Below are positions 671 through 56,352 of a DNA stretch of 64,000 nucleotides, in pieces. This stretch comes from Verrucomicrobiota bacterium. GTDB lineage: Bacteria > Verrucomicrobiota > Verrucomicrobiia > Limisphaerales > UBA11358. The position numbers were made by a program, and so were the translations under genes. The notes under the pieces are model-generated. The model worked only from the letters and a program-made list of their open reading frames with translations, had not been told where the DNA came from and did no database searches. How positions within the stretch are numbered: the first letter of the stretch is position 1; every line of letters begins with the position of its first letter. The stretch lies in contig JBEKON010000001.1 in the NCBI GenBank assembly GCA_049521735.1, positions 98,604 to 162,603 on the forward strand, in the 5' to 3' direction.

Positions 671-3600
671 TTGCGCGAAAAATGCGGTGTGCAGGTGCGA
701 TTTCTCCTCGGCCCCGCCGGCAGCGGCAAGACGTTCCTTTGCCTGAAGGAAATCCGTGATGCACTGCGCGAAAATCCTGAAGGACCGCCGCTGATTTTGC
801 TGGCGCCCAAACAGACCACGTTTCAACTCGAACGCCAGTTGCTCACCGGCCATTCGCTTGACGGTTACACGCGACTCCACATTTTTTCATTCGAGCGGCT
901 GGCACGATTTGTTTTTGAAAAATCAAACATCGTGCCGCCTGAACCATTGAGTGACGAAGGCCGTGTGATGGTGTTGCGCGCGCTGTTGATGCGGCACGAA
1001 CATAAACTGAAACTTTTTCGCGGGAGCGCGCGCCGCCCCGGCTTCGCGCAGGAACTCGGCGGATTGTTCAATGAATTCCGGCAGCATCAATTGACGCCGC
1101 TCAAACTCCGCGCCCTTGCCCAACGCCCGGGCTTGCGTCCCGAACTTGGGGACAAGCTGCAAGACCTCGCGCTGCTGGACGACGCTTACGCGAAATGGCT
1201 CTCCGAACACGAATTGCAGGACGCGGATTGTTTGCTGGATACGGCGACCGAAGCGCTGCGCTCCGAACTTAAAACTCAAAACTCAAAACTTAAAATTCAA
1301 GGTTTGTGGTTGGACGGTTTTGCCGAAATGACGCCGCAGGAACTCGGTTTGCTCGCCACCATTCTGCCGTTTTGTGAACGCGCAACGCTCGCGTTCTGCC
1401 TCGACGAATCCCGCGCGCGGAAAGCCGAAAGTTCATGGCTCTCACTTTGGTCAGCCGTTGGCAAAACCTATCAACAATGCCGGTCGCGAATTGAAAATCT
1501 GCCCGATTGCACAATCAGCGTTGAAACACTTAAGCGTGTCCCGGACCAAAACCGCTTTACGGGCAGTCCCGCTTTGCAATTTTTGGAGGCAAACTGGTCG
1601 CAACCAACTCAAAACTTAAAACTTAAAATTCAAAACTCAATCCGGCTCGTTGCCTGTCCAAATCCCGAAGTCGAGGCCGTTCTGGCCGCGCGCGAAATTT
1701 TGGAATTCGTCCGCCGCGGCAATCGCTTTCGCGACTGCGCCGTGCTTGTTCGCAGTCTTGACGCCTATCACAAGCCGCTGGAGCGCGCATTTTGCCGTTA
1801 CGGCATCCCGTTTTTCCTGGACCAGCGCAAATCCGTTTCACATCACCCCCTCGGCGAACTGACCCGCAGTGTGGTCCGCACCGTTGCATTTGACTGGCGG
1901 CAGGAGGATTGGTTCGCCGCGCTGAAAGCCGGGTTTTCGCCGGTGGATGAGGCGGAGATTGACCGGTTGGAAAACGAGGCGCTGGCGCGCGGCTGGCGTG
2001 GCGCGAAATGGCGCGAACCCATTCAAATCGCCGACGATCCACAATTGGAAAAATCACTCGAACGGTTGCGCAAAAAAATCCTGCCACCGTTTGAAAATTT
2101 CGCCAAACAGCTTGTGCGGTTGAAAAATGAACCCACCGGCGGGCAATTGGCCGATGCGTTGCGCGAACTTTGGGGCGAACTCGATGTGGAGAAAACCTTG
2201 GAGCGTTGGAGCCTTGTCGAAACGGAACAATCCGCAATCCATTCGACCGTTTGGGATCAAATGAACTTGTGGCTGGAAAATCTGGCGCTTGCATTTCCAC
2301 GCGAGCCATTGCCGCTGCGCGACTGGCTGCCAATTTTGGAGGCGGGACTTTCGAACCTGACCGTTGGGGTGATTCCGCCCGTGCTCGACGAAGTGCTCGT
2401 CGGCGCGATTGACCGCGCGCGCAACCCCGATTTGAAACTGGCGCTCGTGCTCGGCGTGAATGAATCCGTTTTTCCCGCCGCGCCCGCCGCCCCGACGATT
2501 TTGACCGACGCCGACCGCGATGAATTGAATCCTGCGGTTGCGCTTGGCCCGGATTTGCGCGAGCGGCTGGCGCGCGAGCGTTATTATGGCTACATCACCT
2601 GCACCCGCGCGCGGGAAAAACTCGTTGTGACCTTTGCCCGCCTCGACGCCGATGGCAAAACACTGAACCCGTCGTCGCTCGTCGCACATCTGCGACAGAT
2701 GTTCCCTGAACTTGAAATTGAGGAATTCCACACGGACACCGATTTGGGCGAGGTGGAACATGTGAGTGAAATCGCGCCGATGCTGATGGGAGTTCAGGTA
2801 GGGCGGGCTGTCCCCAGCCCGCCGGAGCGGCGCGATGAGGACATCGCGCCCTACCAACAAAATTGGGCGAGGTTGCTGAAAATTCCAGTGCTCGCAACGC
2901 TGCTCGAAAATTTGCGCCAGTTGCGCGAACCGGATTCGGCGGAATGTTTGTCTCCCGCGCTCGCGGAAAAAATTTACGGCGAGACACTGCAAACGTCGGT
3001 CAGCCGGCTCGAGGAATTTGCCCAGTGCCCGTTTCGATTTTTCGTTCATTCCGGCTTGCGCGCCGAGGAGCGAAAAGTTTTCGAGCTGGATGCGCGCGAA
3101 CGCGGCAGTTTTCAGCACGAAGTTTTGAAAAAATTCCACGACGATTTGACGAAAGAGGGCAAACACTGGCGCGACATTGCGCCGTCGGAAGCGCGCGAAC
3201 GCGTTGGTAAAATTGCCGCCGGACTTGCGCAAGATTATCGCGACGGTTTGTTGCGCGCGGATGACCAAAGCCGGTTTGCCGCGCGCATGCTGACGGAGTC
3301 GCTGCAGGATTTTGTCGAGGTGCTCGTCGCGTGGATGCGCGGGCAGTACCAGTTTGATCCGGCGGTGGCTGAACTCGAATTTGGTTTCAACGTCGGCGGT
3401 GCGCCCGCGTGGGAAATCAATCTCGACGACCGGCACAAGCTCGCGTTGCGCGGACGGATTGACCGGGTTGATTTGTGCCGCGAAACCGGCGACAGCGCGT
3501 TATGCGTGGTGATGGATTACAAGTCCGGCGGCAAGAAGCTCGACGCGATTTTGGTCGAGCACGGCGTGCAATTGCAATTGCTCGCGTATTTGAACGCGCT

Positions 3601-7097: not shown

Positions 7098-8306
7098 ATG
7101 AAAAGATTCGGGTGCGCGTTTTTTTGGCTGTCGTTTTTCGTCCCGATGCTCGCCAATGCGCAAATTGATCCCATCAAGCGCGATTTGGTTCAGTTCGGCT
7201 ACAATCAAGCGCTCGAAGGCCACGCGCCATTTGCCGGATACGCGTTTTATTATCACAACCAGCCGGATTTTCTGCGCACGAACCTCACCTTGCGTCTGGC
7301 GCTCGCGCCGGTTTATCTCGATTCGGAGCTGGGCTTCGTTGGCGGACTGGGACCGAACACGGATTTCGCCATCGGCGTGGCTGGCGGCGGTTTTGGGGAC
7401 AGTTATTCGGAGATTCGCGGCGGCACGTACTATCCCGGCGAATCGTTTGACGGCAACGGCGGGGAAATTTCCGCGAGCGTTTATCATCTGTTCAATCCCG
7501 GCGACGAAATCCCGCTGAACTTTGTTTTGCGCGGCACGGCGCATTATTCTTTTTACGGTCGCAACGGAGACACGTCACCGGCGTTTCAACTGCCCGGCGA
7601 CCACGGCGATTTCAGCGTGCGCACCGGACTGCGCTGGGGCGGCGTCGAACCGACGTTGTTTCCGCCACTCGCGATGGAGTTGTCCGTTTGGTATGAGGGT
7701 TATTTTCGCAGCCATTCCGGCACGTATGGTTTCAACGGCGACCGCGAGCTCAAGGAACAATCGCATTTGTTTTGGGCGGAAGCGGCGCTGGCGTACACGC
7801 TGCCCAAAAGCCAGCAAAGTTTTTACGTCCGCCTGACCGCCGGCACGAGCGTGGACGCCGACCGTTTCAGCGCGTATCGGCTCGGCGGATTTCTGCCGCT
7901 CATCGCGGAATTTCCGCTATCGCTGCCCGGCTACTATTTTCAGGAAATCAGCGCGCGACAATTTGCGCTGCTCAATGCGAATTACCTTTTGCCGCTCGAC
8001 GGGGAAAAACGCTGGAACATTGACGTGAACGCATCCAGCGCGTTTGTGGATTATCTGCCCGGCGAATCGCAGCCCGGCAACTGGCTCAACAGCGTAGGCG
8101 GCGGCATTTTGTATCATTCACCGTCCGACCGCTGGAAAATCATGCTCGATTACGCTCACGGCATTGACGCCATTCGTTCTCATGGACGCGGCGCGAACAG
8201 CATCGGTTTGCTCGTGCAATTCGATCTCGGCGCCAAGCCCAGCCGGAGCTTCAATTCCACGCAACCATCGCAGTGGCGCGGATGGCAGCGGATTTTCGGC
8301 GATTGA
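7098..8306 (+). CDS. Secreted hypothetical protein, probably an outer-membrane beta-barrel
   Basis: Signal peptide MKRFGCAFFWLSFFVPMLANAQ; Gly/aromatic-rich alternating composition; no family recognised. Confidence 0.5.
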   Translation: MKRFGCAFFWLSFFVPMLANAQIDPIKRDLVQFGYNQALEGHAPFAGYAFYYHNQPDFLRTNLTLRLALAPVYLDSELGFVGGLGPNTDFAIGVAGGGFGDSYSEIRGGTYYPGESFDGNGGEISASVYHLFNPGDEIPLNFVLRGTAHYSFYGRNGDTSPAFQLPGDHGDFSVRTGLRWGGVEPTLFPPLAMELSVWYEGYFRSHSGTYGFNGDRELKEQSHLFWAEAALAYTLPKSQQSFYVRLTAGTSVDADRFSAYRLGGFLPLIAEFPLSLPGYYFQEISARQFALLNANYLLPLDGEKRWNIDVNASSAFVDYLPGESQPGNWLNSVGGGILYHSPSDRWKIMLDYAHGIDAIRSHGRGANSIGLLVQFDLGAKPSRSFNSTQPSQWRGWQRIFGD

Positions 8307-8426: not shown

Positions 8427-8511
8427 GCGCATATGGTGGAATTGGCAGACACGCTACTTTGAGGTGGTAGTGGGGCAACCCGTGCAGGTTCAAGTCCTGC
8501 TATGCGCACCA
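8427..8511 (+). tRNA. tRNA-Leu (anticodon GAG), CCA encoded
   Basis: Hand fold: acceptor GCGCATA/TATGCGC, anticodon stem CTACT/GGTAG with loop TTGAGGT, long variable arm, T-arm GCAGG-TTCAAGT-CCTGC. Layout parallels E. coli tRNA-Leu. Confidence 0.9.
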
Positions 8512-9693: not shown

Positions 9694-10896
9694 TTAATCA
9701 ACACGTGCCGTCAGCAACAAATCCGGTCCGAGCCGCCTCCACTCGACGTTGCGAAGCCGGAGCGCCTCCGCCAGACTTTTCGCGCCGCCACCCGCGACCG
9801 CTTTGCGTGAGTCGCGTCCGCCCAGAATTTTTGGCGCGTAAAAAAACGCGATGCGATGTGCAAAACCGCCGAGCAGAAACGATGCGTTCACTTCGCCGCC
9901 GCCTTCGACCAGCAGGCTGGTAATATTTTGTGAGCCGAGTTTTTGCAACAGCCAACGCAGGTCAATTTGTTGGTAGGGCACGGTCTCCGCACCGTGCCGC
10001 GGCGCGCTGGGGACAGCGCGCCCTACCTTGATTATGGGCGCGACAAGAACATTCACGCGCCCGGCCAAAGCCGCGACGCGACTTTTCGGCGCGGATTTGC
10101 TCACGACAATCGTCGTCAGCGCCGCAAATTTGTCAGTTACAACTTTTGCCTTCAACGGTGTTCGTGCCATCGAATCCAAAATAATCCGGCGGAGCCGCAA
10201 ATTTTTGTTCTGACTTCTGACTCCTGACTTCTGCCTTCTGAATGTCAGGCTTGGGTTGTCCGCTAGAATCGTGTTGATGCCGACGAGAATCGCGTCGTTG
10301 CCTTGACGCAATTTCATGCCGTGCGCCCGAGCCTGCTTGCCGGTAATCCATTTCGACTCGCCACTCGCCGTGGCGATTTTCCCATCGAGCGTCATTGCCG
10401 CCTTCACGGTCACGAACGGCGTGCGGTGAACAATCCAATGGTTGAATGGTTCATTAAGCCGCTCACATTCATCGGCGAGTCTGGTAGGGACGGCTCGCCG
10501 AGCCGTCCGGTCATCACGGCGCAATAACCCTACCTCTGTTACTGCAATCCCGGCACGTTTCAAAATCCTGAAAGCACGACCGGCATGTTTCGGATTTGGA
10601 TCCGTCGCGCCGACAACCACGCGTTTGATTCCCGCCGCGATGATGGCGTCCGTGCAAGGTGGCGTGCGGCTGTGTGAGCTGCACGGTTCGAGCGTCACGT
10701 AAAGCGTTGCGCCGCGCGGCGAGTGCCCGCGTTTCTGCGCATCGCGGAGCGCTTCGATTTCCGCGTGCGGCAGACCCGCACGCCGGTGCCAGCCGCGCCC
10801 GATGATTTTTCCGCCTTTCGCCAATACCGCGCCGACCATCGGATTGGGCGAAGTCATGCCGTAGCCGCGTTGCGCCAAACTCAAAGCCAGGCGCAT
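9694..10896 (-). CDS. ribD: Bifunctional riboflavin biosynthesis deaminase/reductase RibD, carrying three in-frame repeat insertions
   Basis: MRLALSLAQRGYGMTSPNPMVGAVL, HAEIEAL, LEPC..H..TPPC deaminase motifs plus reductase domain. Start moved to ATG 10896 to clear the ftsY stop. Confidence 0.9.
   Translation of the reverse strand: MRLALSLAQRGYGMTSPNPMVGAVLAKGGKIIGRGWHRRAGLPHAEIEALRDAQKRGHSPRGATLYVTLEPCSSHSRTPPCTDAIIAAGIKRVVVGATDPNPKHAGRAFRILKRAGIAVTEVGLLRRDDRTARRAVPTRLADECERLNEPFNHWIVHRTPFVTVKAAMTLDGKIATASGESKWITGKQARAHGMKLRQGNDAILVGINTILADNPSLTFRRQKSGVRSQNKNLRLRRIILDSMARTPLKAKVVTDKFAALTTIVVSKSAPKSRVAALAGRVNVLVAPIIKVGRAVPSAPRHGAETVPYQQIDLRWLLQKLGSQNITSLLVEGGGEVNASFLLGGFAHRIAFFYAPKILGGRDSRKAVAGGGAKSLAEALRLRNVEWRRLGPDLLLTARVD
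9972..10027 (-). repeat. Type-1 GTAGG...CCTAC double-hairpin element, in frame inside ribD
   Basis: Gene-strand reading ggtagg-gcgcgctg tcccc agcgcgc-...-ggcacggtg cggag accgtgcc-ctacc = VGRAVPSAPRHGAETVPYQ. Confidence 0.9.
10210..10249 (-). repeat. Heptamer array (CTGACTT/CTGACTC/CTGCCTT x5) in frame inside ribD
   Basis: ctgacttctgactcctgacttctgccttctgaatgtcagg; encodes RRQKSGVRSQNKN on the gene strand. Confidence 0.9.
10483..10534 (-). repeat. GTAGG...CCTAC palindromic element (variant) in frame inside ribD
   Basis: ggtagggacggctcgccgagccgtccggtcatcacggcgcaataaccctacc; gene strand reads VGLLRRDDRTARRAVPT. Confidence 0.85.
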
Positions 10897-13801: not shown

Positions 13802-13813
13802 GCGCCGTTGCAA

Positions 13814-13845
13814 CTTAAAACTCAAAATTCATAATTCAAAATTAA
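13814..13845 (+). repeat. Intergenic AAAACTC-type heptamer array, same family as 1268 and 1606
   Basis: cttaaaactcaaaattcataattcaaaattaa. Confidence 0.85.
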
Positions 13846-37827: not shown

Positions 37828-37887
37828 GGTAGGGCGGGCTGTCCCCAGCCCGCCGCCAACGGCGCGATGAGGACATCGCGCCCTACC
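37828..37887 (+). repeat. Type-1 GTAGG...CCTAC double-hairpin element immediately upstream of the recG ATG
   Basis: ggtagggcgggctgtccccagcccgccgccaacggcgcgatgaggacatcgcgccctacc. Near-identical to 2797-2855 but 1 nt longer, which gives TGA in the recG frame. Confidence 0.9.
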
Positions 37888-37891
37888 TTCC

Positions 37892-39949
37892 ATGCGTCCA
37901 CAAATCCAAGACAATCCGCTGGCTGCACCCGTAACGACATTGTGGGGTGTCGGCGCGGAACGCGCGGCGCAACTCGCACGCCTCGACATTCACACCATCG
38001 AGGATTTGTTGCTGCACCGGCCGCGGCGTTATGAAGATCGCCGTCATTTTCGCAGTATTGCCGGGTTGACCCGTGACGAAGCGGCGACCACGCGCGGCAC
38101 GATTGTCACGCTCGGCCTCAGACGTTTTCGCGGCGGCAACAAATCCGTTTTTGAAATCATTCTCGATGATGGCAGCGCCCGGTTGCATTGCCGCTGGTGG
38201 AATCTGCCGTTCATGCAAAATTATTTTGCGGTTGGCGACGAGATTTTCGTTTACGGCAAGCTCAATGAAACCAAGCCGCGCATCATTGACCATCCTGAAA
38301 CCGAAGTCATCGAGGGCGGCGAGGAGAGCTTCATCCACATCAACCGCATCGCGCCGGTGTATCCGCTCACCGAAGGCCTGCCGCAACGCTGGTTGCGCGG
38401 GCTGATCTGGCGGACGTTGGAAAAATTCGAGCGGCACATCGCCGAACCGTGGCCGGGAAATGTAGGACAGGTGTCCCGCCTGTCTCCATCTTCAAGTTCT
38501 AAAAATCAGGGACAGGCTGGAAGCCTGTCCTACCCGACGCGCGCCAACGCCATTCACATGACGCATTTCCCCGAAGAGCTGGCCGATGTGGAAATCGCAC
38601 GGCGACGGCTGGCGTTGGATGAATTCATTGCGTTGCAGCGTGACATGCAGCTTCGCCGGAAAAATTTCGAGGCCAAATCGCGCGCATTACCGTGCGGTGG
38701 TGACAATCGTTTGATGAAGCCGTTTCTGGCACGGCTCGGCTTCAAGCTCACCGACGCCCAGACGAAAGTCCTCCGCGAAATCCGGGCGGACATGAGCGGG
38801 GCGCATCCGATGCGGCGGCTGCTGCAAGGCGACGTCGGTTCAGGCAAGACGGTGGTTGCCGCCTGCGCGGCGCTCATGGCTTTGGAAAGCGGGTTCAATG
38901 TTGCGCTCATGGCGCCGACGGAAATCCTTGCGGAACAACATTTCAACAATTTTTCGCGCTGGTTTGGACCGCTCGGCGTGAAGGTGAAATTGCAAACAGG
39001 TTCACACAGGAGTAAGGAACAAGAAGTAAGGCGCAAGACCCTCGCAGCAAAACCCTTACTCCTTACTCCTTGCTCCTTGACCATCGGCACTCACGCCCTC
39101 ATCGAGTCGGGATTTGTATTGGAGAAATTGGGTTTGGTCATTATTGACGAGCAGCACAAGTTTGGCGTGGCACAGCGCGAACAGATCGTGCGTAAAGGCC
39201 GCTATCCGCATTTGCTCGTGATGACGGCTACCCCGATTCCGCGCACGCTCGGCCTTACGCTTTACGGCGACCTTGATATTTCGGTAATTGACCAGATGCC
39301 CGGTGGACGCGGCAGGATAAAAACTTTTCTACGCACGACCGAAAAATTGCCTGAAGTTTGGAAATTCATCCGCGAAAAACTGGCTGCCGGACGGCAGGCA
39401 TACGTCGTTTATCCGCGCGTGGAGGATTCAGGACCAAATGGGTTGAAAGCGGTGAAAAAGGAATTTGAAAATTTGAAGAAGCTGCTCGCGCCATTCCATG
39501 TCGGGTTGATGCACGGCCGGTTGAAAGGGCGGGAGAAGGACGAAGTAATGACAGCGTTTCGCGCGAACCAAATTCAGGCGCTCGTCGCGACGACGCTGGT
39601 TGAAGTGGGTTTGGATGTGCCGAACGCAACGATCATGCTGGTTGAAAATGCGGAGCGGTTCGGTCTGGCGCAATTGCATCAATTACGCGGGCGCATCGGG
39701 CGCGGCGCGCATGAGTCGCACTGCATTTTGATTTCCGACGCGAAGAATGAGGATGCAGGGCGGCGCTTGAAAGTTTTGGAAGAGACGACGGACGGGTTTC
39801 GCATTGCCGAGGTGGATTTGAAATTGCGCGGGCCGGGCGAATTGCTCGGCCAGCGGCAAAGCGGCCTGCCGAAATTCCGCTTCGGCAATCTGGCCGGGGA
39901 TTTGGATTTGATCCGGTTTGCGCGCGAGTTGGCGGCGCAAATAATTTAG
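37892..39949 (+). CDS. recG: ATP-dependent DNA helicase RecG, carrying two in-frame repeat segments
   Basis: LLLHRPRRYEDR wedge-domain start, GDVGSGKTVVA, DEQHKFGV, MTATPIPRTL, HGRLK..EK, QLHQLRGRIGRG. Confidence 0.9.
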   Translation: MRPQIQDNPLAAPVTTLWGVGAERAAQLARLDIHTIEDLLLHRPRRYEDRRHFRSIAGLTRDEAATTRGTIVTLGLRRFRGGNKSVFEIILDDGSARLHCRWWNLPFMQNYFAVGDEIFVYGKLNETKPRIIDHPETEVIEGGEESFIHINRIAPVYPLTEGLPQRWLRGLIWRTLEKFERHIAEPWPGNVGQVSRLSPSSSSKNQGQAGSLSYPTRANAIHMTHFPEELADVEIARRRLALDEFIALQRDMQLRRKNFEAKSRALPCGGDNRLMKPFLARLGFKLTDAQTKVLREIRADMSGAHPMRRLLQGDVGSGKTVVAACAALMALESGFNVALMAPTEILAEQHFNNFSRWFGPLGVKVKLQTGSHRSKEQEVRRKTLAAKPLLLTPCSLTIGTHALIESGFVLEKLGLVIIDEQHKFGVAQREQIVRKGRYPHLLVMTATPIPRTLGLTLYGDLDISVIDQMPGGRGRIKTFLRTTEKLPEVWKFIREKLAAGRQAYVVYPRVEDSGPNGLKAVKKEFENLKKLLAPFHVGLMHGRLKGREKDEVMTAFRANQIQALVATTLVEVGLDVPNATIMLVENAERFGLAQLHQLRGRIGRGAHESHCILISDAKNEDAGRRLKVLEETTDGFRIAEVDLKLRGPGELLGQRQSGLPKFRFGNLAGDLDLIRFARELAAQII
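38462..38533 (+). repeat. Type-2 GTAGGACAGG...CCTGTCCTAC element (72 nt) in frame inside recG
   Basis: gtaggacaggtgtcccgcctgtctccatct...cagggacaggctggaagcctgtcctac = VGQVSRLSPSSSSKNQGQAGSLSY. Confidence 0.9.
39009..39076 (+). repeat. Heptamer-arm hairpin (GTAAGGA/ACAAGAA vs CCTTACT x2) in frame inside recG
   Basis: ggagtaaggaacaagaagtaaggcgcaag - loop - cccttactccttactccttgctcc; encodes RSKEQEVRRKTLAAKPLLLTPCS. Confidence 0.85.
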
Positions 39950-46458: not shown

Positions 46459-46490
46459 GCGGAACGCGGACAACTTGTCCGCGCTCCTAC
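46459..46490 (-). repeat. Single REP-like unit (GTAGGAG + hairpin) overlapping the murA stop codon
   Basis: Minus strand reads tcGTAGGAGCGCGGACAAGTTGTCCGCGttcc; the TAG is the murA stop. Confidence 0.7.
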
Positions 46491-49433: not shown

Positions 49434-50360
49434 ATGAGCAAAACCGCATTGCTGTTTGCCGGACAAGGCACGCAGGCCGTCGGCATGGGCAAAGACCTCG
49501 CCGAAAAATTTCCGTCGGCCAAAGCCTGGTTCGACCGCGCCAACGGCGCGCTCGGCTGCGATCTGGCTTCGATCTGTTTCACCGGCCCGGAAGCCGAACT
49601 CACCAAAACCGAAAATGCACAGCCGGGAATTTTTCTCGTGAGCTGGGTCGCGTTTCTATTGCTCAAGGAACAGGCGCCGTTGCTTAAATTCGACGCCACA
49701 GCTGGTTTGTCGCTCGGCGAATTCACAGCGCTGACGGCGGCGGGCGCAATGAATTTCGAGGACGGTCTGCGGGTCGTGCGCCAGCGCGGACGATTCATGC
49801 AGGAAGCCTGCGATGCCACGCGCGGCGGCATGGCGGCGGTCATCGGCTTGGACGAAACGCTCACACGCGAGGTTTGTGCCGAAGCCGGCGTGGTGCTGGC
49901 AAACCTGAATTGTCCCGGCCAGCTCGTGATTTCCGGCGAGATGGACAAGATCGCCAAAGCCGTCGAACTCGCCAAAGCCAGGGGCGCAAAACGCGCGATT
50001 CCACTACCGGTCGCCGGCGCCTATCACTCGCCGCTCATGGCCAGTGCACAGCCAAAACTTCAAGCTGAATTGGCCAAAATGAAATTATCATCACTGGTTG
50101 TGCCGGTGATTTCGAACGTGACGGGACAACCGCATGGCGGCACAACGGAAATTTCCGCCCGGCTTGTCGAGCAGATCACGTCATCGGTGTTCTGGGAAAA
50201 ATCCATGCGATATCTGTTGGCACAAGGATTCACGCGGTTTATAGAACTCGGGCCCGGCACGGCATTGAGCGGTTTCATGAAACGAATTGATAAAAATGCG
50301 CAGATGCTCAACGTGGCGGACGTGGCAAGCCTGGAAGCGACGGCGAAAGTGCTGGTGTAG
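49434..50360 (+). CDS. fabD: Malonyl-CoA:ACP transacylase
   Basis: FAGQGTQ, GLSLGEF, full length 308 aa; the stop TAG lies in the GTAG terminus of the next element. Confidence 0.95.
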   Translation: MSKTALLFAGQGTQAVGMGKDLAEKFPSAKAWFDRANGALGCDLASICFTGPEAELTKTENAQPGIFLVSWVAFLLLKEQAPLLKFDATAGLSLGEFTALTAAGAMNFEDGLRVVRQRGRFMQEACDATRGGMAAVIGLDETLTREVCAEAGVVLANLNCPGQLVISGEMDKIAKAVELAKARGAKRAIPLPVAGAYHSPLMASAQPKLQAELAKMKLSSLVVPVISNVTGQPHGGTTEISARLVEQITSSVFWEKSMRYLLAQGFTRFIELGPGTALSGFMKRIDKNAQMLNVADVASLEATAKVLV

Positions 50361-50461
50361 CACCCGCGTCTCGCGGGTGACGTTGGGCGTCCCGCCCGGC
50401 GCAAGTTTCCGCAAAGGTTCAGGCGGGACGCCTGAACCGACCCGCCGGAGGCGGGTGCTAC
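50357..50461 (+). repeat. 105-nt GTAGCACCCGC...GCGGGTGCTAC multi-hairpin palindromic element
   Basis: gtagcacccgcgtctcgcgggtg ... ggcgtcccgcc ... ggcgggacgcc ... cccgccggaggcgggtgctac. Confidence 0.85.
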
Positions 50462-51655: not shown

Positions 51656-52915
51656 ATGGCAAACCATTCAACAGAACGTCGTGTCGTCATTACCGGCCTC
51701 GGCGTGGTGACGCCGCTGGGAAATCAACTCGGCGTTTTTTGGGATAACCTCGTCGCCGGCAAATGCGGCATTGACCGCATCAGTTCCTTTGACGCGACAC
51801 CGTTTGACTGCCAAATCGCCGGCGAGGTGAAAGATTTTGATCCCACGCCCGCATTCCCGTCGCCGAAGGAAATTCGTCGCACGGATCGTTATTCGCAATT
51901 TGGCATTTATGCCGGGTATCAGGCCTTGCTGGATTCCGGCCTCGACCTCGATAAGGAAAACCGCGACGAAATCGGTGTCATCATCGGTTCGGGCATCGGC
52001 GGACTGCAAACGACCGCCGAGCAACATATAGTTTTGCTCAACCGCGGGCCGGGGCGGCTGTCGCCATTCATGATTCCGATGCTCATCAGCAACATGGCTT
52101 CGGGCCTGTTTTCGATGTTTTACAAATTGCGTGGTCCGAATTTCGCCACCTGTTCGGCCTGCGCAACGTCCAACCACGCCATCGGCGAAGCCTGGCGCGC
52201 CATCAAAATGGGCGATGCGCAGGTGATGTTCGCCGGCGGCGCGGAAGCGGCGGTCATGCCCGTTGGCATCGGCGGGTTTTGCGCCATGAAAGCCTTGAGC
52301 ACGCGCAACGACGACCCCCAACACGCCTCGCGGCCATTCGACAAGGAACGCGACGGCTTCGTCATGGGCGAAGGTGCGGGCGTGATTGTGCTCGAAGAAT
52401 TGGAGCACGCCAAAAAACGCAGCGCGAAAATTTATTGCGAAATCGTCGGCTACGGAAACACCGCCGACGCTTACCATTTGACCGCGCCATCGCCCGGAGG
52501 TGAAGGTGCGGTGCGTTGCATGAGAATGGCTTTGCGCAATGGCGGGTTGAACCTGGAAGACGTTTCCTACATCAACGCTCATGGCACATCCACACAGCAA
52601 GGCGACCTTTGCGAAACGCAAGCCATCAAAACCGTTTTCGGCGGGCACGCAAAAAAGCTCGCCGTCAGTTCCACCAAAGGCGCAACCGGCCACATGCTCG
52701 GCGCGGCAGGCGCGGTGGAAATGAGTGTCTGTGCCCTCGCCATCAAACATGGCATCGTCCCACCGACCATCAATTATCAGGTGCCCGATCCAGAATGTGA
52801 TTTGGATTACGTTCCCAACACCGCGCGCAAGTTGAAGGTCAACGCTGTTATCAACAATTCATTCGGTTTCGGCGGCCACAACGCGAGCATCGCGGCGAAG
52901 AAGTTTGAGGGCTGA
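51656..52915 (+). CDS. fabF: Beta-ketoacyl-ACP synthase II
   Basis: ATCSACATSNHAIG, HGTSTQQGD, GHMLGAAG. Confidence 0.95.
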   Translation: MANHSTERRVVITGLGVVTPLGNQLGVFWDNLVAGKCGIDRISSFDATPFDCQIAGEVKDFDPTPAFPSPKEIRRTDRYSQFGIYAGYQALLDSGLDLDKENRDEIGVIIGSGIGGLQTTAEQHIVLLNRGPGRLSPFMIPMLISNMASGLFSMFYKLRGPNFATCSACATSNHAIGEAWRAIKMGDAQVMFAGGAEAAVMPVGIGGFCAMKALSTRNDDPQHASRPFDKERDGFVMGEGAGVIVLEELEHAKKRSAKIYCEIVGYGNTADAYHLTAPSPGGEGAVRCMRMALRNGGLNLEDVSYINAHGTSTQQGDLCETQAIKTVFGGHAKKLAVSSTKGATGHMLGAAGAVEMSVCALAIKHGIVPPTINYQVPDPECDLDYVPNTARKLKVNAVINNSFGFGGHNASIAAKKFEG

Positions 52916-52927
52916 AGCATCTTCAAA

Positions 52928-53000
52928 ATAGGACAGGCTTCCAGCTTGTCTCCATCTCAAAGCGGGAAAAAGTCATGGACGGGCAAGATGCCTGTCCTAC
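52928..53000 (+). repeat. Type-2 (A/G)TAGGACAGG...CCTGTCCTAC element between convergent fabF and pyrF
   Basis: ataggacaggcttccagcttgtctccatct...ggacgggcaagatgcctgtcctac; its right terminus supplies the pyrF stop codon. Confidence 0.9.
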
Positions 53001-53701
53001 TTTAAAGACTCCAAAATCTTCTCCGCTGCTTCCCGCGGATTTTCCGCCGCATAAATCGGCCGGCCAATCACCAGCCAGTTTGCCCCGGCGGCAATGGCTT
53101 CCCGCGGCGTCAGCGTGCGCTTTTGGTCGTCGGCTTTTTCTGTGCCAGTGCGAACACCGGGTGTGATGAGTTGAATGCCGGCAGTCAACATTTGACGCAG
53201 CTCGGCCACTTCCAACGGCGAGCAAATAAGACCGCGCAGGCCGGCTTTGGTGGCCATGTTCGCGAGCCGGCGCACCTGGCTGGCGACATTCGGGTCAAGG
53301 CCGATTTCGCTTAACGACTGGCTGGTGAGGCTTGTGAGCACGGTCACGCCCAGCACCAACGGCGCATTGTGACCGGTTTGTTTCGCGGTTTTTTGCGCCG
53401 ATTCCTCCGCCGCGCGCATCATGTCCACTCCGCCGCTGACATGCACGGTGAGCATTTGCACGTCCAATCGCACGGCCGAGGCAACGGCTCTGGCGACGGT
53501 GTTCGGGATGTCGTGGAATTTTAAATCAAGAAAAACCGCGGCCCCCGTCGCGCGAATCCGCCGGACAATATCCGGCCCGGCGCTGGTGAACAATTCGCTG
53601 CCAATCTTGAACGCGCCGACCACCGGCGCGATTTTCTTGGCCAACTCCAGCGCGGCTTCGGCGGTTGGCACATCGAGCGCGGCGATGATGGGATTACGCA
53701 T
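52997..53701 (-). CDS. pyrF: Orotidine 5'-phosphate decarboxylase
   Basis: IIAALDV, FLDLKFHDIPNTV, PGVR. Confidence 0.9.
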   Translation of the reverse strand: MRNPIIAALDVPTAEAALELAKKIAPVVGAFKIGSELFTSAGPDIVRRIRATGAAVFLDLKFHDIPNTVARAVASAVRLDVQMLTVHVSGGVDMMRAAEESAQKTAKQTGHNAPLVLGVTVLTSLTSQSLSEIGLDPNVASQVRRLANMATKAGLRGLICSPLEVAELRQMLTAGIQLITPGVRTGTEKADDQKRTLTPREAIAAGANWLVIGRPIYAAENPREAAEKILESLK

Positions 53702-53908: not shown

Positions 53909-55204
53909 ATGAAAGTCATCCGCCACACCGACGCGAATTTTTCCCAGAAACTTCGCGAACTGACTGCGCCGTCGAGCCTGTTCGATCCTGTCATCGAACA
54001 GCGCGTCCGCGCCATCCTTGATGCGGTGCAAATTCGCGGCGACGATGCGGTATTGGAATTCACGGAAAAATTCGATGGCGCAAAACTCACCGCCGACCAG
54101 ATCGCCGTGACACAGGCTGAACTAATGGCCGCGTCACTCAAAGCCGACGAGTCGCTGCGCACCGCCGTCGCCGGGGCGGGAAAAAACATCACGAACTTCG
54201 CCAGGAAATCGCTGCGCAAAAACTGGCAGACGAAAAATTCGCACGGCGCGAAAGTCGGCGAGAAATTCGATCCGTTCCAGCGCGTCGGCGTTTACATTCC
54301 CGGCGGCAAGGCGCCGCTCGTTTCGACTGCGCTGATGACCATTACGCTGGCGAAGGTTGCGGGCTGTCCGGAAATTGTTGTTTGCACGCCGTGCGGCAGG
54401 GATGGCTCCATCAATTCCGTGTTGTTGTTCGCCGCTCGTGCGGCAGGCGCGACGGAGATTTACCGCGTAGGCGGGGCACAGGCGATTGCGGCGATGGCTT
54501 ACGGCACAAACACGATTCGCCGTGTGCAGAAAATTTTCGGCCCCGGCAATGCCTATGTCGTCACTGCCAAGCGCCTGCTCGTCGGGTATGTCGCGATTGA
54601 TTTGCTGCCCGGCCCAAGCGAACTGCTCGTGCTGGCGGACGAAACGGCGAATCCGAAATTCATCGCTGCCGACTTGTTGCCGCAGGCCGAGCACGGCTCC
54701 GGACACGAGCGCGTCTGGCTCATAACGACTTCGGATAAAATTTTGAAAGCCGTTGAAAAGGAGATTGCCAGACAATTACCGAAGCTGGAGCGGCGGGAAT
54801 TCATCCAGCGCGTGCTCGACGCCAACGGCTGGCTGATTCAGGTGAAAACGCTCGATGATGGCGTGGCGCTGGCGAACCGGCTCGCGCCGGAGCATTGCGA
54901 AGTGATGACGCGCAATCCGCGCAAGGTTTCCAGGGGTATTTTGACCGCCGGCGCGATTTTCCTTGGGCCATGGTCGCCGACGGTGCTGGGCGATTACGTG
55001 GCCGGGCCGAGCCACACGCTGCCGACCGGCGGCGCTGGCGCGTCGTTTGCCGGCCTGACGGTGGATCAGTTCCAGCGCCGCACCAGCGTGGTGGAATACA
55101 CCCGCGCCTCGCTCAAGAAAGCCCTGCCCACCGTGAAGAAATTCGCGGAACTGGAAGGTCTGGACGCGCATGGACGTTCTGCCGAAATTCGTTCCTCAAA
55201 ATGA
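53909..55204 (+). CDS. hisD: Histidinol dehydrogenase
   Basis: YIPGGKAPLVST, GPGNAYV, AEHGSG..., HTLPTGG. Confidence 0.95.
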   Translation: MKVIRHTDANFSQKLRELTAPSSLFDPVIEQRVRAILDAVQIRGDDAVLEFTEKFDGAKLTADQIAVTQAELMAASLKADESLRTAVAGAGKNITNFARKSLRKNWQTKNSHGAKVGEKFDPFQRVGVYIPGGKAPLVSTALMTITLAKVAGCPEIVVCTPCGRDGSINSVLLFAARAAGATEIYRVGGAQAIAAMAYGTNTIRRVQKIFGPGNAYVVTAKRLLVGYVAIDLLPGPSELLVLADETANPKFIAADLLPQAEHGSGHERVWLITTSDKILKAVEKEIARQLPKLERREFIQRVLDANGWLIQVKTLDDGVALANRLAPEHCEVMTRNPRKVSRGILTAGAIFLGPWSPTVLGDYVAGPSHTLPTGGAGASFAGLTVDQFQRRTSVVEYTRASLKKALPTVKKFAELEGLDAHGRSAEIRSSK

Positions 55205-56352
55205 AAAGTCCTAAACTTTTGGTTCGTCCGCTCGTGCGCGAGTTGTACCCCTACGTTTATGGCGAGCAGCCAAAGATCAAAGGGTTGATCAAGCTCAACA
55301 CGAACGAAAATCCGTATCCGCCGTCGCCGAAGGTGCTGGCGGCGGTCAGAGCGGCGGTGGACGGGCGGTTACGGAAGTATCCAAACCCGACGGCACAGAC
55401 GCTGCGCGAAAAGCTGGCGAAGTTGCACGGTTGTCACGCGGACAACATCATCGTGGGCAACGGCTCGGACGAATTGCTGGCATTGGCCACGCGGTGCTTT
55501 GTGGAGCCAAGCGTAGGACAGGCTTCCAGCCTGTCTCCATCTGCAAAGAAAAAGTCAGAGACAGGCAAGATGCCTGTCCTACGTTGCAACATCATCCAAT
55601 ACTTCACACCAAGTTATTCGCTCTACCCAGTGCTCGCGGATATTCACGGTGCGGCGAAGAATCCCGTGTCACTCAAGCCTGATTTTAGCCTGCCGAGTGT
55701 GGCGGAATTGAAGCATGGAAGGGTGTGGAGATTTAACGCCGCACTGACTTATGTGACGACACCGAACGCACCCAGCGGTCGCGGTTATTCGATAAAGGAA
55801 TTGGAATCGCTTTGCCGGGCGCAACGCGGTGTGGTGGTGCTGGATGAGGCTTATGTGGATTTCGCGGAGGAAAACGCGATGAAACTGGCGTTGAAATATC
55901 CGCATGTGCTCGTCGCGCGGACATTCTCGAAGGCGTATTCGCTCTGCTTCCAGCGTGTCGGTTATTTTGTCGGGCATCGCGACCTCATCGCGGCGCTGCA
56001 CAAAATTCGCGACAGTTACAATGTCAACGGCCTCGGCCAGATCGCCGCAGTGGCAACGCTGGGTGATTTGCCGTATTACCGCGCGAATTTCCGGAGAATT
56101 ATCGCCACGCGTGAGTGGTTGAGCCGCGAATTGACGAAGCTCGGTTTCCGTGTTTTTCCGAGTCAGGCGAATTTTATTCTCGTCCAGCCGTCATTGTTTT
56201 CCGCGAAAGACTGGCTGGAAAAACTTCGAGACCGGAAAATTCTGGTCCGCTGGTTTAATTTCCACGAGGTAAAAAAATATCTGCGCATCACAATTGGCAA
56301 TCCCTCGGAAGTGGAAGCATTGGTGCAAGCGGCGCGGAAGATTTTGTTGTAG
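55201..56352 (+). CDS. hisC: Histidinol-phosphate aminotransferase, carrying an in-frame repeat insertion
   Basis: LNTNENPYPPSP, GNGSDELL, FSKAYSL; ATGA overlap with hisD. Confidence 0.9.
   Translation: MKSPKLLVRPLVRELYPYVYGEQPKIKGLIKLNTNENPYPPSPKVLAAVRAAVDGRLRKYPNPTAQTLREKLAKLHGCHADNIIVGNGSDELLALATRCFVEPSVGQASSLSPSAKKKSETGKMPVLRCNIIQYFTPSYSLYPVLADIHGAAKNPVSLKPDFSLPSVAELKHGRVWRFNAALTYVTTPNAPSGRGYSIKELESLCRAQRGVVVLDEAYVDFAEENAMKLALKYPHVLVARTFSKAYSLCFQRVGYFVGHRDLIAALHKIRDSYNVNGLGQIAAVATLGDLPYYRANFRRIIATREWLSRELTKLGFRVFPSQANFILVQPSLFSAKDWLEKLRDRKILVRWFNFHEVKKYLRITIGNPSEVEALVQAARKILL
55513..55582 (+). repeat. Type-2 GTAGGACAGG...CCTGTCCTAC element in frame inside hisC
   Basis: gtaggacaggcttccagcctgtctccatctgcaaagaaaaagtcagagacaggcaagatgcctgtcctac = VGQASSLSPSAKKKSETGKMPVL. 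Confidence 0.9.

Follow-up and report, generated by a model that had tools for sequence, protein, structure and literature searches.

REPIN-like dimers of GTAG-tagged palindromes lie in frame in recG and hisC of a Verrucomicrobiota bacterium, at sites occupied in all clade members examined

In a 64,000-nucleotide stretch from a Verrucomicrobiota bacterium (Limisphaerales, UBA11358; assembly GCA_049521735.1, contig JBEKON010000001.1, positions 98,604 to 162,603 of the forward strand; henceforth termed the window), one palindromic element occurs three times: in frame in the helicase gene recG, in frame in the histidine biosynthesis gene hisC, and between fabF and pyrF. These copies are tail-to-tail dimers of a GTAG-tagged repetitive extragenic palindromic (REP) sequence and resemble REP doublets forming hairpins (REPINs). 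Most probably, they are non-autonomous, hairpin-forming DNA served by a family-specific REP-associated tyrosine transposase (RAYT), with the intragenic copies being old in-frame insertions at sites that act as landing pads. An initial annotation, made from the letters of the window alone, had described the repeat and did not recognize in it a GTAG REP dimer that has a cognate RAYT.

Results

Each copy starts with a 23-nt unit, GTAGGACAGGC-N5-GCCTGTC, continues with TCCATCT and an A-rich stretch of 17-20 nt, and closes with the inverted unit GACAGGC-N5-GCCTGTCCTAC, the end of the element reading CCTGTCCTAC (Table 1). An inverted dimer of short GTAG-headed palindromes is the anatomy of REP dimers and REPINs. 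The GTAG head is present in five of the six units in the window and replaced by ATAG in the remaining one. The three copies and their shared orientation and anatomy stand as initially annotated: a search for GACAGG-N8-CTGTCTCCATCT with up to three mismatches returned these copies and one partial match on the reverse strand (0.00 expected from 100 shuffles), and GCCTGTCCTAC with up to one mismatch matched six times, at both ends of the three copies (0.29 expected, maximum 2 in shuffles). Folded as a single strand, every copy forms a single long hairpin through pairing of its left unit with its right unit. As DNA, copies 1, 2 and 3 fold with -19.4 kcal/mol (z -6.5), -14.3 kcal/mol (z -3.2) and -21.3 kcal/mol (z -7.1), respectively; as RNA, copies 1 and 3 reach -39.6 kcal/mol (z -7.6) and -40.6 kcal/mol (z -8.7). 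An Rfam scan of the whole window matched only a tRNA at 8427-8508, the element giving no match at gathering score.

Table 1. Positions in the window of the REP dimers, a second recG insert and the host or neighboring genes.
Feature	Position	Strand	Description
recG	37892-39949	+	685 aa; Pfam RecG_wedge, DEAD, Helicase_C, RecG_dom3_C
REP dimer, copy 1	38462-38533	+	72 nt; in frame in recG; reads VGQVSRLSPSSSSKNQGQAGSLSY
Copy 1, left REP	38462-38484		
Copy 1, spacer	38485-38510		includes TCCATCT
Copy 1, right REP	38511-38533		
Second palindromic insert in recG	39004-39085		residues ~372-398; inverted heptamer arrays GGAGTAAGG...CCTTACTCC; reads SHRSKEQEVRRKTLAAKPLLLTPCSL
fabF	51656-52915	+	Pfam ketoacyl-synt, Ketoacyl-synt_C; stop codon 12 nt upstream of copy 2
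REP dimer, copy 2	52928-53000	+	73 nt; between convergent fabF and pyrF
Copy 2, left REP	52928-52950		head degraded to ATAG
Copy 2, spacer	52951-52977		
Copy 2, right REP	52978-53000		
pyrF	52997-53701	-	Pfam OMPdecase; stop codon within GTAG head of copy 2
hisC	55204-56352	+	382 aa; Pfam Aminotran_1_2 match in two stretches
REP dimer, copy 3	55513-55582	+	70 nt; in frame in hisC; reads VGQASSLSPSAKKKSETGKMPVL
Copy 3, left REP	55513-55535		
Copy 3, spacer	55536-55559		
Copy 3, right REP	55560-55582		
Other GTAG REP dimer	2798-2854		in frame in AddB-like nuclease; VGRAVPSPPERRDEDIAPYQ
Other GTAG REP dimer	9973-10026		in frame in ribD; VGRAVPSAPRHGAETVPYQ
Other GTAG REP dimer	10484-10540		in frame in ribD; VGLLRRDDRTARRAVPTR

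Both intragenic copies lie between conserved blocks, as had been proposed, with stretches recognized by Pfam and HMMER on either side. The RecG insert corresponds to residues 191-214 between the wedge and helicase domains (RecG_wedge 18-176, DEAD 289-451), and the alignment to the structure 1gm5 (E 2.9e-145) is gapped there. In HisC, whose gene adjoins hisD, the insert covers residues 104-127, after FVEP and before QYFTPSYSLYP; HMMER aligns 3hdo with residues 9-100 and 131-379, placing 5 residues of 3hdo opposite about 30 of the query. The proposed length of 24 codons each is exact for recG, whereas the hisC element measures 70 nt and adds a net of about 24 residues relative to solved structures. 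The location in HisC is argued from these alignments instead of a model, the AlphaFold2 prediction from 40 close homologues being unusable (alignment too shallow; mean pLDDT 50.7, insert region below 50). Both genes are intact open reading frames (ORFs) with intact orthologues. Copy 2 does sit between fabF and pyrF but is not wholly intergenic: it overlaps pyrF by four bases, its terminal CTAC providing the last base of the final Lys codon and the TAG stop (52997-52999, minus strand). Separately, a type-1 REP dimer at 37829-37886, which matches the AddB-like gene's in-frame copy at 100% identity, ends 5 nt upstream of the recG ATG, where an effect on translation initiation is conceivable.

The window copies belong to a large family. 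At least 120 metagenome contigs carry the exact family pattern, and the matched loci (given L numbers here) together with the window yielded 76 dimers for analysis. Their unit consensus, GTAGGACAGGC-(D)TC(N)(H)-GCCTGTC, comprises a 7-bp stem and a 5-nt loop. Unit heads in the collected loci read GTAG 237 times and GTGG 32 times, the remainder being mostly reverse-strand readings of the same palindromes; the search pattern that gathered the family itself contained GTAG. Spacers vary among the 76 dimers, with a recurrent subfamily, TCTCCATCT-N-AAAAAGTCAGAGAC, that includes the window copies. Across 140 distinct REP units the stem is paired in 95.4% of cells, compared to 25-40% in slid controls. 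Counted on paralogous copies and including amplified subfamilies, 29 two-sided stem changes were found against 3.5 +/- 1.7 in shuffles, none of 500 shuffles reaching 29, and such changes are present at four of the seven stem pairs, while the central spacer diverges. Compensatory change, initially read from the three window copies, is borne out by the family and not by those copies, which differ in their stems only by three one-sided transitions that create G:T(U) wobbles (38472 T, 52946 T, 52981 G). Five loci (L090, L128, L130, L155, L169) have GTAGGACAGGC dimers whose spacer or loop holds nested REP hairpins or dimers from other families, which shows that resident elements are themselves insertion targets.

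The candidate enzyme for this family is a RAYT, by its sequence a HUH/Y1 tyrosine transposase of the IS200/IS605 superfamily. On three independent contigs (L200, L208, L209), a Y1 transposase gene has dimers of the GTAGGACAGGC family on both sides. In L200, two dimers bracket a Y1_Tnp/REP_Tyr_transpos ORF that scores 65.2 bits with NCBIfam REP_Tyr_transpos (E 6e-18; cut-off 80) and 22.3 with Pfam (cut-off 23). The RAYTs of L208 and L209, the two closest full-length homologues among those with retrievable DNA, are 61% and 59% identical to it, and many further homologues carry the JGI name 'REP element-mobilizing transposase RayT'. In L208 (about 487-520), the RAYT ATG lies inside the loop of the adjacent REP and AGGATGCCTGTCCTAC encodes MPVL: the start region AGG-ATG-CCT-GTC-CTA-CCG gives MPVLP, and the hisC copy of the window (55568-55582) reads the same string as KMPVL. 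With the ATG placed within the loop and stem, units with AAGAT or AGGAT loops hold a ready ATG plus the first four RAYT codons. Other REP families in relatives own a RAYT each. The RAYT of L074 (89.4 bits, above the cut-off) is flanked by the TAGGAGCGCGGACAGCTTGTCCGCG family, which also occupies the hisC site of that locus 4 kb away, and the RAYT of L173 is flanked by the GTAGCGTTGAGCC family. Taken together, anatomy, covariation and RAYT bracketing, features that sequence can test, agree with membership in the GTAG-REP/RAYT systems.

Two further RAYT arrangements were seen. In L200 (10509-13448, minus strand), a whole REPtron (dimer, RAYT-like domain, dimer; ~270 codons) lies in frame within a 980-aa ORF for a DinG-like helicase, with no stop codon and no evident ATG for the RAYT part. 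Additionally, 13 of the 120 best RAYT homologues (P0397, P0401, P0402, P0404, P0406, P0409, P0411, P0417, P0422, P0446, P0452, P0457 and P0479), proteins of 350-380 aa, contain a dtd domain (PF02580, D-Tyr-tRNA deacylase), and all but one of them also contain Y1_Tnp, which suggests a recurrent dtd-RAYT fusion or read-through.

In-frame residence extends well beyond recG and hisC. Roughly one in four of the 76 dimers is in frame in a housekeeping gene that Pfam verified. Twenty dimers from metagenome loci fall in long spanning ORFs, and for 18 of these Pfam verified the gene: LeuRS, Dus, PutA, MMPL, HisC, two MqnC-like proteins, NUDIX, GlnRS, a B12 radical-SAM enzyme, an esterase, GcvP, a CysJ-like flavoprotein, TrpE, two SNF2 proteins and, twice, DinG. 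Among the 22 ORF-spanning copies, including the two from the window, the head is read as GTA-GGA (VGQ...) in 14 and as GT-AGG or GT-GGG (RRTG...) in eight; the G-TAG frame is never read, as expected if stop codons filter surviving insertions. The window itself holds three dimers of the GTAGGACAGGC family and nine REP sites over all GTAG families, five of which are coding, that is, five in-frame dimers in four genes. The ribD dimer at 10484 shows the two-hairpin architecture of the hisC-site dimer in L023, L027 and L047. At the second insert site of recG, relatives carry inserts of the TSNIQHRTSNIE...QPSTLNPQPSTL type, with segment lengths of 5-35 residues.

We compared the two main sites with the 120 closest RecG and the 120 closest HisC homologues (76-100% identity) and with 80 GTDB species genomes gathered via their HisC loci using tblastn anchors, all of them Verrucomicrobiota/Limisphaerales metagenome-assembled genomes (MAGs). 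An insert is present at the same place in 120 of 120 RecG (76-99% identity), 120 of 120 HisC and 80 of 80 species genomes; no empty recG or hisC site was found in this sample. PDB homologues of both proteins do not have it. The stretch from LIWR to HFP in RecG is 40 residues long in 105 of 149 proteins from a search of 1.8 billion cluster representatives, and measures 57 residues in the window against 38 in the nearest cluster, P0241 (67% identity). Judged by these alignments, the insert is limited to this clade and absent outside it. The expectation of clean, recent or strain-polymorphic 24-codon insertions was thus not borne out; the concern that orthologues broadly share the segments proved half justified, in that the site is shared in the clade and the 24-residue sequence is not.

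What fills the sites differs between species. The recG site holds at least 10 repeat classes, defined by explicit motifs, and across 81 genomes the content of the hisC site falls into 25 sequence clusters. Palindromic dimers with a GTAG head make up most of them, and some are tandem or inverted heptamers such as (AAAGTCC)n; at hisC, in-frame heptamer repeats occur in about 15 species (e.g., L010, L017, L054) and read PKSKVQSPKS or QNSKLKTQNSKL. Several families at hisC begin at the same nucleotide, directly after GAGCCN. Orthologous copies with the spacer of the window were found at hisC in L002 (0 differences in 70 nt) and L003 (1 difference), with 76-86% identity in the flanking DNA, and at recG in L201 (5 differences in 72 nt), with 78-87% identical flanks and 77% identical RecG. 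The recG and hisC insertions are old, being shared with species in which identity of the flanking DNA is only 76-87%. The notion that the hisC spacer represents a multi-copy master sequence was rejected, as among 209 loci it occurs only at hisC of L002 and L003. The intergenic copy has an orthologue in L006 and decayed remnants in L007, L016, L021 and L038. It is absent from L001, where 8 nt (7274-7281) separate fabF and pyrF in place of window positions 52916-52996 and the CTAC forming the pyrF stop is kept; either the element was lost almost precisely, or a GTAG already present served as the target.

To place these differences on a phylogeny, we used a neighbor-joining tree of hisD and hisC (777 aligned residues, 100 bootstraps), which covers two genes from MAGs; a tree of HisC alone was poorly resolved. 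The window and L001 group together in 100% of bootstraps, as do the window, L001 and L006, and the insert classes are monophyletic in 0 of 100 bootstrap trees. At hisC, the window carries class A, whereas L001 and L006 have an unrelated dimer, GTAGGGACACGCGG...; flank identity between the window and L001 is 93% and 89% as far as the cassette edges. At recG, the L001 genome (locus L210) carries a different cassette between flanks that share 97% and 93% identity with those of the window, and L202, with 95% and 90% identical flanks, has a third. Sites that are always occupied, by different families, imply repeated replacement, and the pattern fits cassettes being replaced at a fixed site. A recombination tract from an L002-like donor at hisC was rejected, since the flanks remain L001-like to the cassette edges with no tract visible. 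Replacement may have proceeded through RAYT-mediated exchange, through very short conversion tracts, or by way of long-lived polymorphism.

Another account would be that occupancy reflects many independent random insertions filtered by loop tolerance, with neither targeting nor replacement. Such an account gains from the in-frame copies in many genes and from REP-like inserts that only some relatives carry at RecG 12, 302-303 and 375-392 and at HisC 173-177. It fits poorly with the complete occupancy of the main sites, given that RecG 302-303 is empty in most relatives, with the identical starting nucleotide of different families after GAGCCN, with the nested REPs that mark resident dimers as targets, and with unrelated cassettes in sister genomes whose flanks are 89-97% identical. 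We therefore regard purely random insertion as unlikely.

The divergence of the inserts bears on a different alternative. Proportions of synonymous (pS) and nonsynonymous (pN) differences were computed by the Nei-Gojobori method (NG86) for 22 same-class hisC pairs, with 200 flanking codons for comparison. Insert pS lies mostly at 0.05-0.15 (extremes 0.00 and 0.32) and flank pS mostly at 0.35-0.55 (0.27-0.62), making synonymous divergence 3-10 times lower in the inserts. With pN similar in both, the pN/pS ratio comes to about 1 for inserts and about 0.2 for flanks. For the one recG pair, insert pS is 0.05 and pN 0.08; its flank values are unreliable, the upstream flank being one codon out of register, which inflates pN. 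Class C forms an exception, with some pairs diverging about as fast as their flanks. Low pS combined with a pN/pS near 1 points to constraint on the nucleotide sequence and not on the peptide.

Such constraint would also be expected if the hairpins were kept for a host function, as an mRNA or DNA device such as a translation pause at a domain boundary or a site for RNase or gyrase, mobility being incidental; selection for a hairpin at both sites would then explain why every clade member examined is occupied. The very stable RNA folds of the three copies (-32 to -41 kcal/mol) and the strongly palindromic nature of nearly all the unrelated families found at a site speak for this view as well. 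The hisC site, however, does not require a strong hairpin, since about 25 of 81 species carry short or heptamer sequences there whose folds are weak (0 to -10 kcal/mol). Moreover, the same families are also found between genes and within numerous unrelated ones, RecG and HisC from outside the clade function with no insert, and the intergenic copy decays in relatives and is missing from L001. On balance, we consider a host function as the primary cause to be quite improbable.

Two further explanations carry little weight. Because all relatives are MAGs or metagenome contigs, the cassette pattern could in principle be an artefact of assembly or chimerism at repeats, which is very improbable for elements of 60-100 nt that are shorter than reads, recur in the same cassette-site combinations across independent studies and across assemblies of both long and short reads, and always leave frames intact. 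A conventional MITE (a miniature transposable element with inverted repeats) derived from a DDE-transposase insertion sequence, which terminal inverted repeats, small size, non-coding nature and multiple copies might suggest, is hardly credible, as each end is a stem-loop with a GTAG head, Y1/RAYT is the only kind of transposase gene seen between copies, and no direct repeats flank any of the 43 dimers examined. This absence of target-site duplication speaks against a DDE-type MITE and is consistent with IS200/IS605-type chemistry; the same 43 flanks show a weak A-rich preference at -3 and -2 with some inverted symmetry. An intein or intron was rejected for an insert of 24 codons that is presumably translated and lacks splicing motifs.

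The window contains additional repeats. At 46461-46490, the 3' end of aroA carries one REP from the family flanking the RAYT of L074, GTAGGAGCGCGGACAAGTTGTCCGCG; this REP overlaps the last few bases of the gene. Another GTAG-family dimer, GTAGCACCCGCG..., is located between fabD and fabG (50357-50461). Tandem heptamers (AAAACTC, AAAACTT or AAAGTCC)n are intergenic at 1261-1307, 1594-1640 and 13807-13839.

Discussion

In the reading we favor, that of RAYT-served dimers at landing-pad sites, we infer from sequence that a RAYT would move or maintain the dimers, by way of a single-stranded hairpin intermediate. Intragenic copies would persist only where the frame avoids the TAG of the GTAG head, where the spacer is free of stop codons, and where a tolerant loop can accommodate 20-30 extra residues, as may be the case for the RecG wedge-helicase linker and for the HisC turn after the GSDE helix; a persisting insert would simply be translated. 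The recG and hisC sites would then represent long-lived landing pads in a Limisphaerales-like clade, in which REP or heptamer-repeat families replace one another.

Several points weigh against this picture. Mobility was not observed, and the copies are ancient and look immobile. By motif search of six-frame translations the 64-kb window contains no RAYT, so the link to a transposase relies on contigs other than this genome, and the RAYT of L200 falls below both curated cut-offs. Stem covariation draws on paralogous copies with subfamily amplification, which inflates the cell counts. Translation of the inserts is assumed from their intact frames. Finally, the low pS of the inserts could stem from later re-introduction rather than from selection.

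A more specific proposal would be that the loops at RecG 191-214 and HisC 104-127 are heritable pads at which RAYT-dependent cassettes of different families are exchanged precisely at GTAG...CTAC instead of being inserted at random, with the resident cassette under nucleotide-level selection. It would account for sites that are never empty, for unrelated cassettes between sisters with 89-97% identical flanks, and for the recurrence, in lineages other than closest relatives, of cassettes that are almost identical and share a site-specific spacer. We offer it tentatively, as a possibility with the balance still tilted against it.

The element shares much with described GTAG REPs, REPINs and RAYTs (Nunvar 2010, PMC2817692; Bertels & Rainey 2011, PMC3337134; Di Nocera 2013, PMC3733652): the GTAG head, a G+C-rich stem of 7-8 bp closed by a short loop, inverted dimers folding into a single long hairpin, several families in a genome, the lack of target-site duplication, a preference for convergent or co-directional intergenic sites, and a RAYT bracketed by cognate REPs. 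It differs in the RAYT start codon inside a REP loop, in the bracketing of the RAYT by dimers instead of single REPs, and in the large in-frame share. The closest precedent comes from Di Nocera et al. (PMC3733652), who defined GTAG- and CGTC-tagged REPs with head-to-head and tail-to-tail dimers and described REPtrons. In their study, Opitutus terrae has intragenic, in-frame GTAG REP dimers of 20-30 residues (Additional file 3), replication and repair genes are frequent hosts, and Xanthomonas recB carries different REPs at about one site. The O. terrae dimers come from the same phylum, add 20-30 codons in frame (e.g., VGPALAAGREQRARLPAAGERPPY, 24 aa), read from VG... to ...PY and prominently inhabit DNA repair and RNA-handling genes; they belong to a different order and to different REP families. 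The O. terrae list includes neither recG nor hisC nor the present unit sequence, in a comparison that did not extend to all family consensuses. As that study concerned a single genome, occupancy of a site across species with a changing family would not have been visible there. In-frame GTAG REP dimers are thus known already, and the present data add another REP family with its RAYT.

Rickettsia palindromic elements (RPEs), reportedly described by Ogata and colleagues in 2000, likewise are palindromic repeats that entered housekeeping genes in frame, and their translation gives additional segments that the function of the protein tolerates. RPE-1 is longer, and RPE hosts are obligate intracellular alphaproteobacteria (Rickettsiales). 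PMC3733652 assigns intragenic RPE-4 and RPE-6 to CGTC-tagged REPs, a class for which no dedicated transposase was found there. Our element is RPE-like in being tolerated in frame, yet it is not an RPE: membership was rejected on its GTAG instead of CGTC head and its Verrucomicrobiota host, and no sequence relationship is expected.

Enterobacterial bacterial interspersed mosaic elements and palindromic units, studied by Gilson, Bachellier and colleagues, are said to place species-specific REP sequences at conserved intergenic positions. The sites described here resemble them in keeping their position as the REP sequence changes from one species to another. Here, however, the conserved positions are coding, many unrelated families are involved, and turnover is seen between genomes with 89-97% identical flanks.

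These findings show that Rickettsia and Opitutus are not alone in having in-frame REP dimers in essential genes and that such dimers are pervasive in a large clade of uncultured soil and peat Verrucomicrobiota. Repeat-derived segments such as VGQASSLS..., DRQDACPT... and TGKMPVL... will mislead alignment, clustering and structure prediction for this clade. The points to carry forward are the in-frame density, the ever-occupied sites with changing families, the nucleotide-level conservation of inserts and the in-frame REPtron in a helicase gene; they leave the classification of the element unchanged. The comparative pattern touches a long-standing question, namely why REP positions are conserved and REP sequences are not. 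Because both flanks of the sites are alignable coding sequence, replacements can be dated by synonymous divergence and mapped to the nucleotide.

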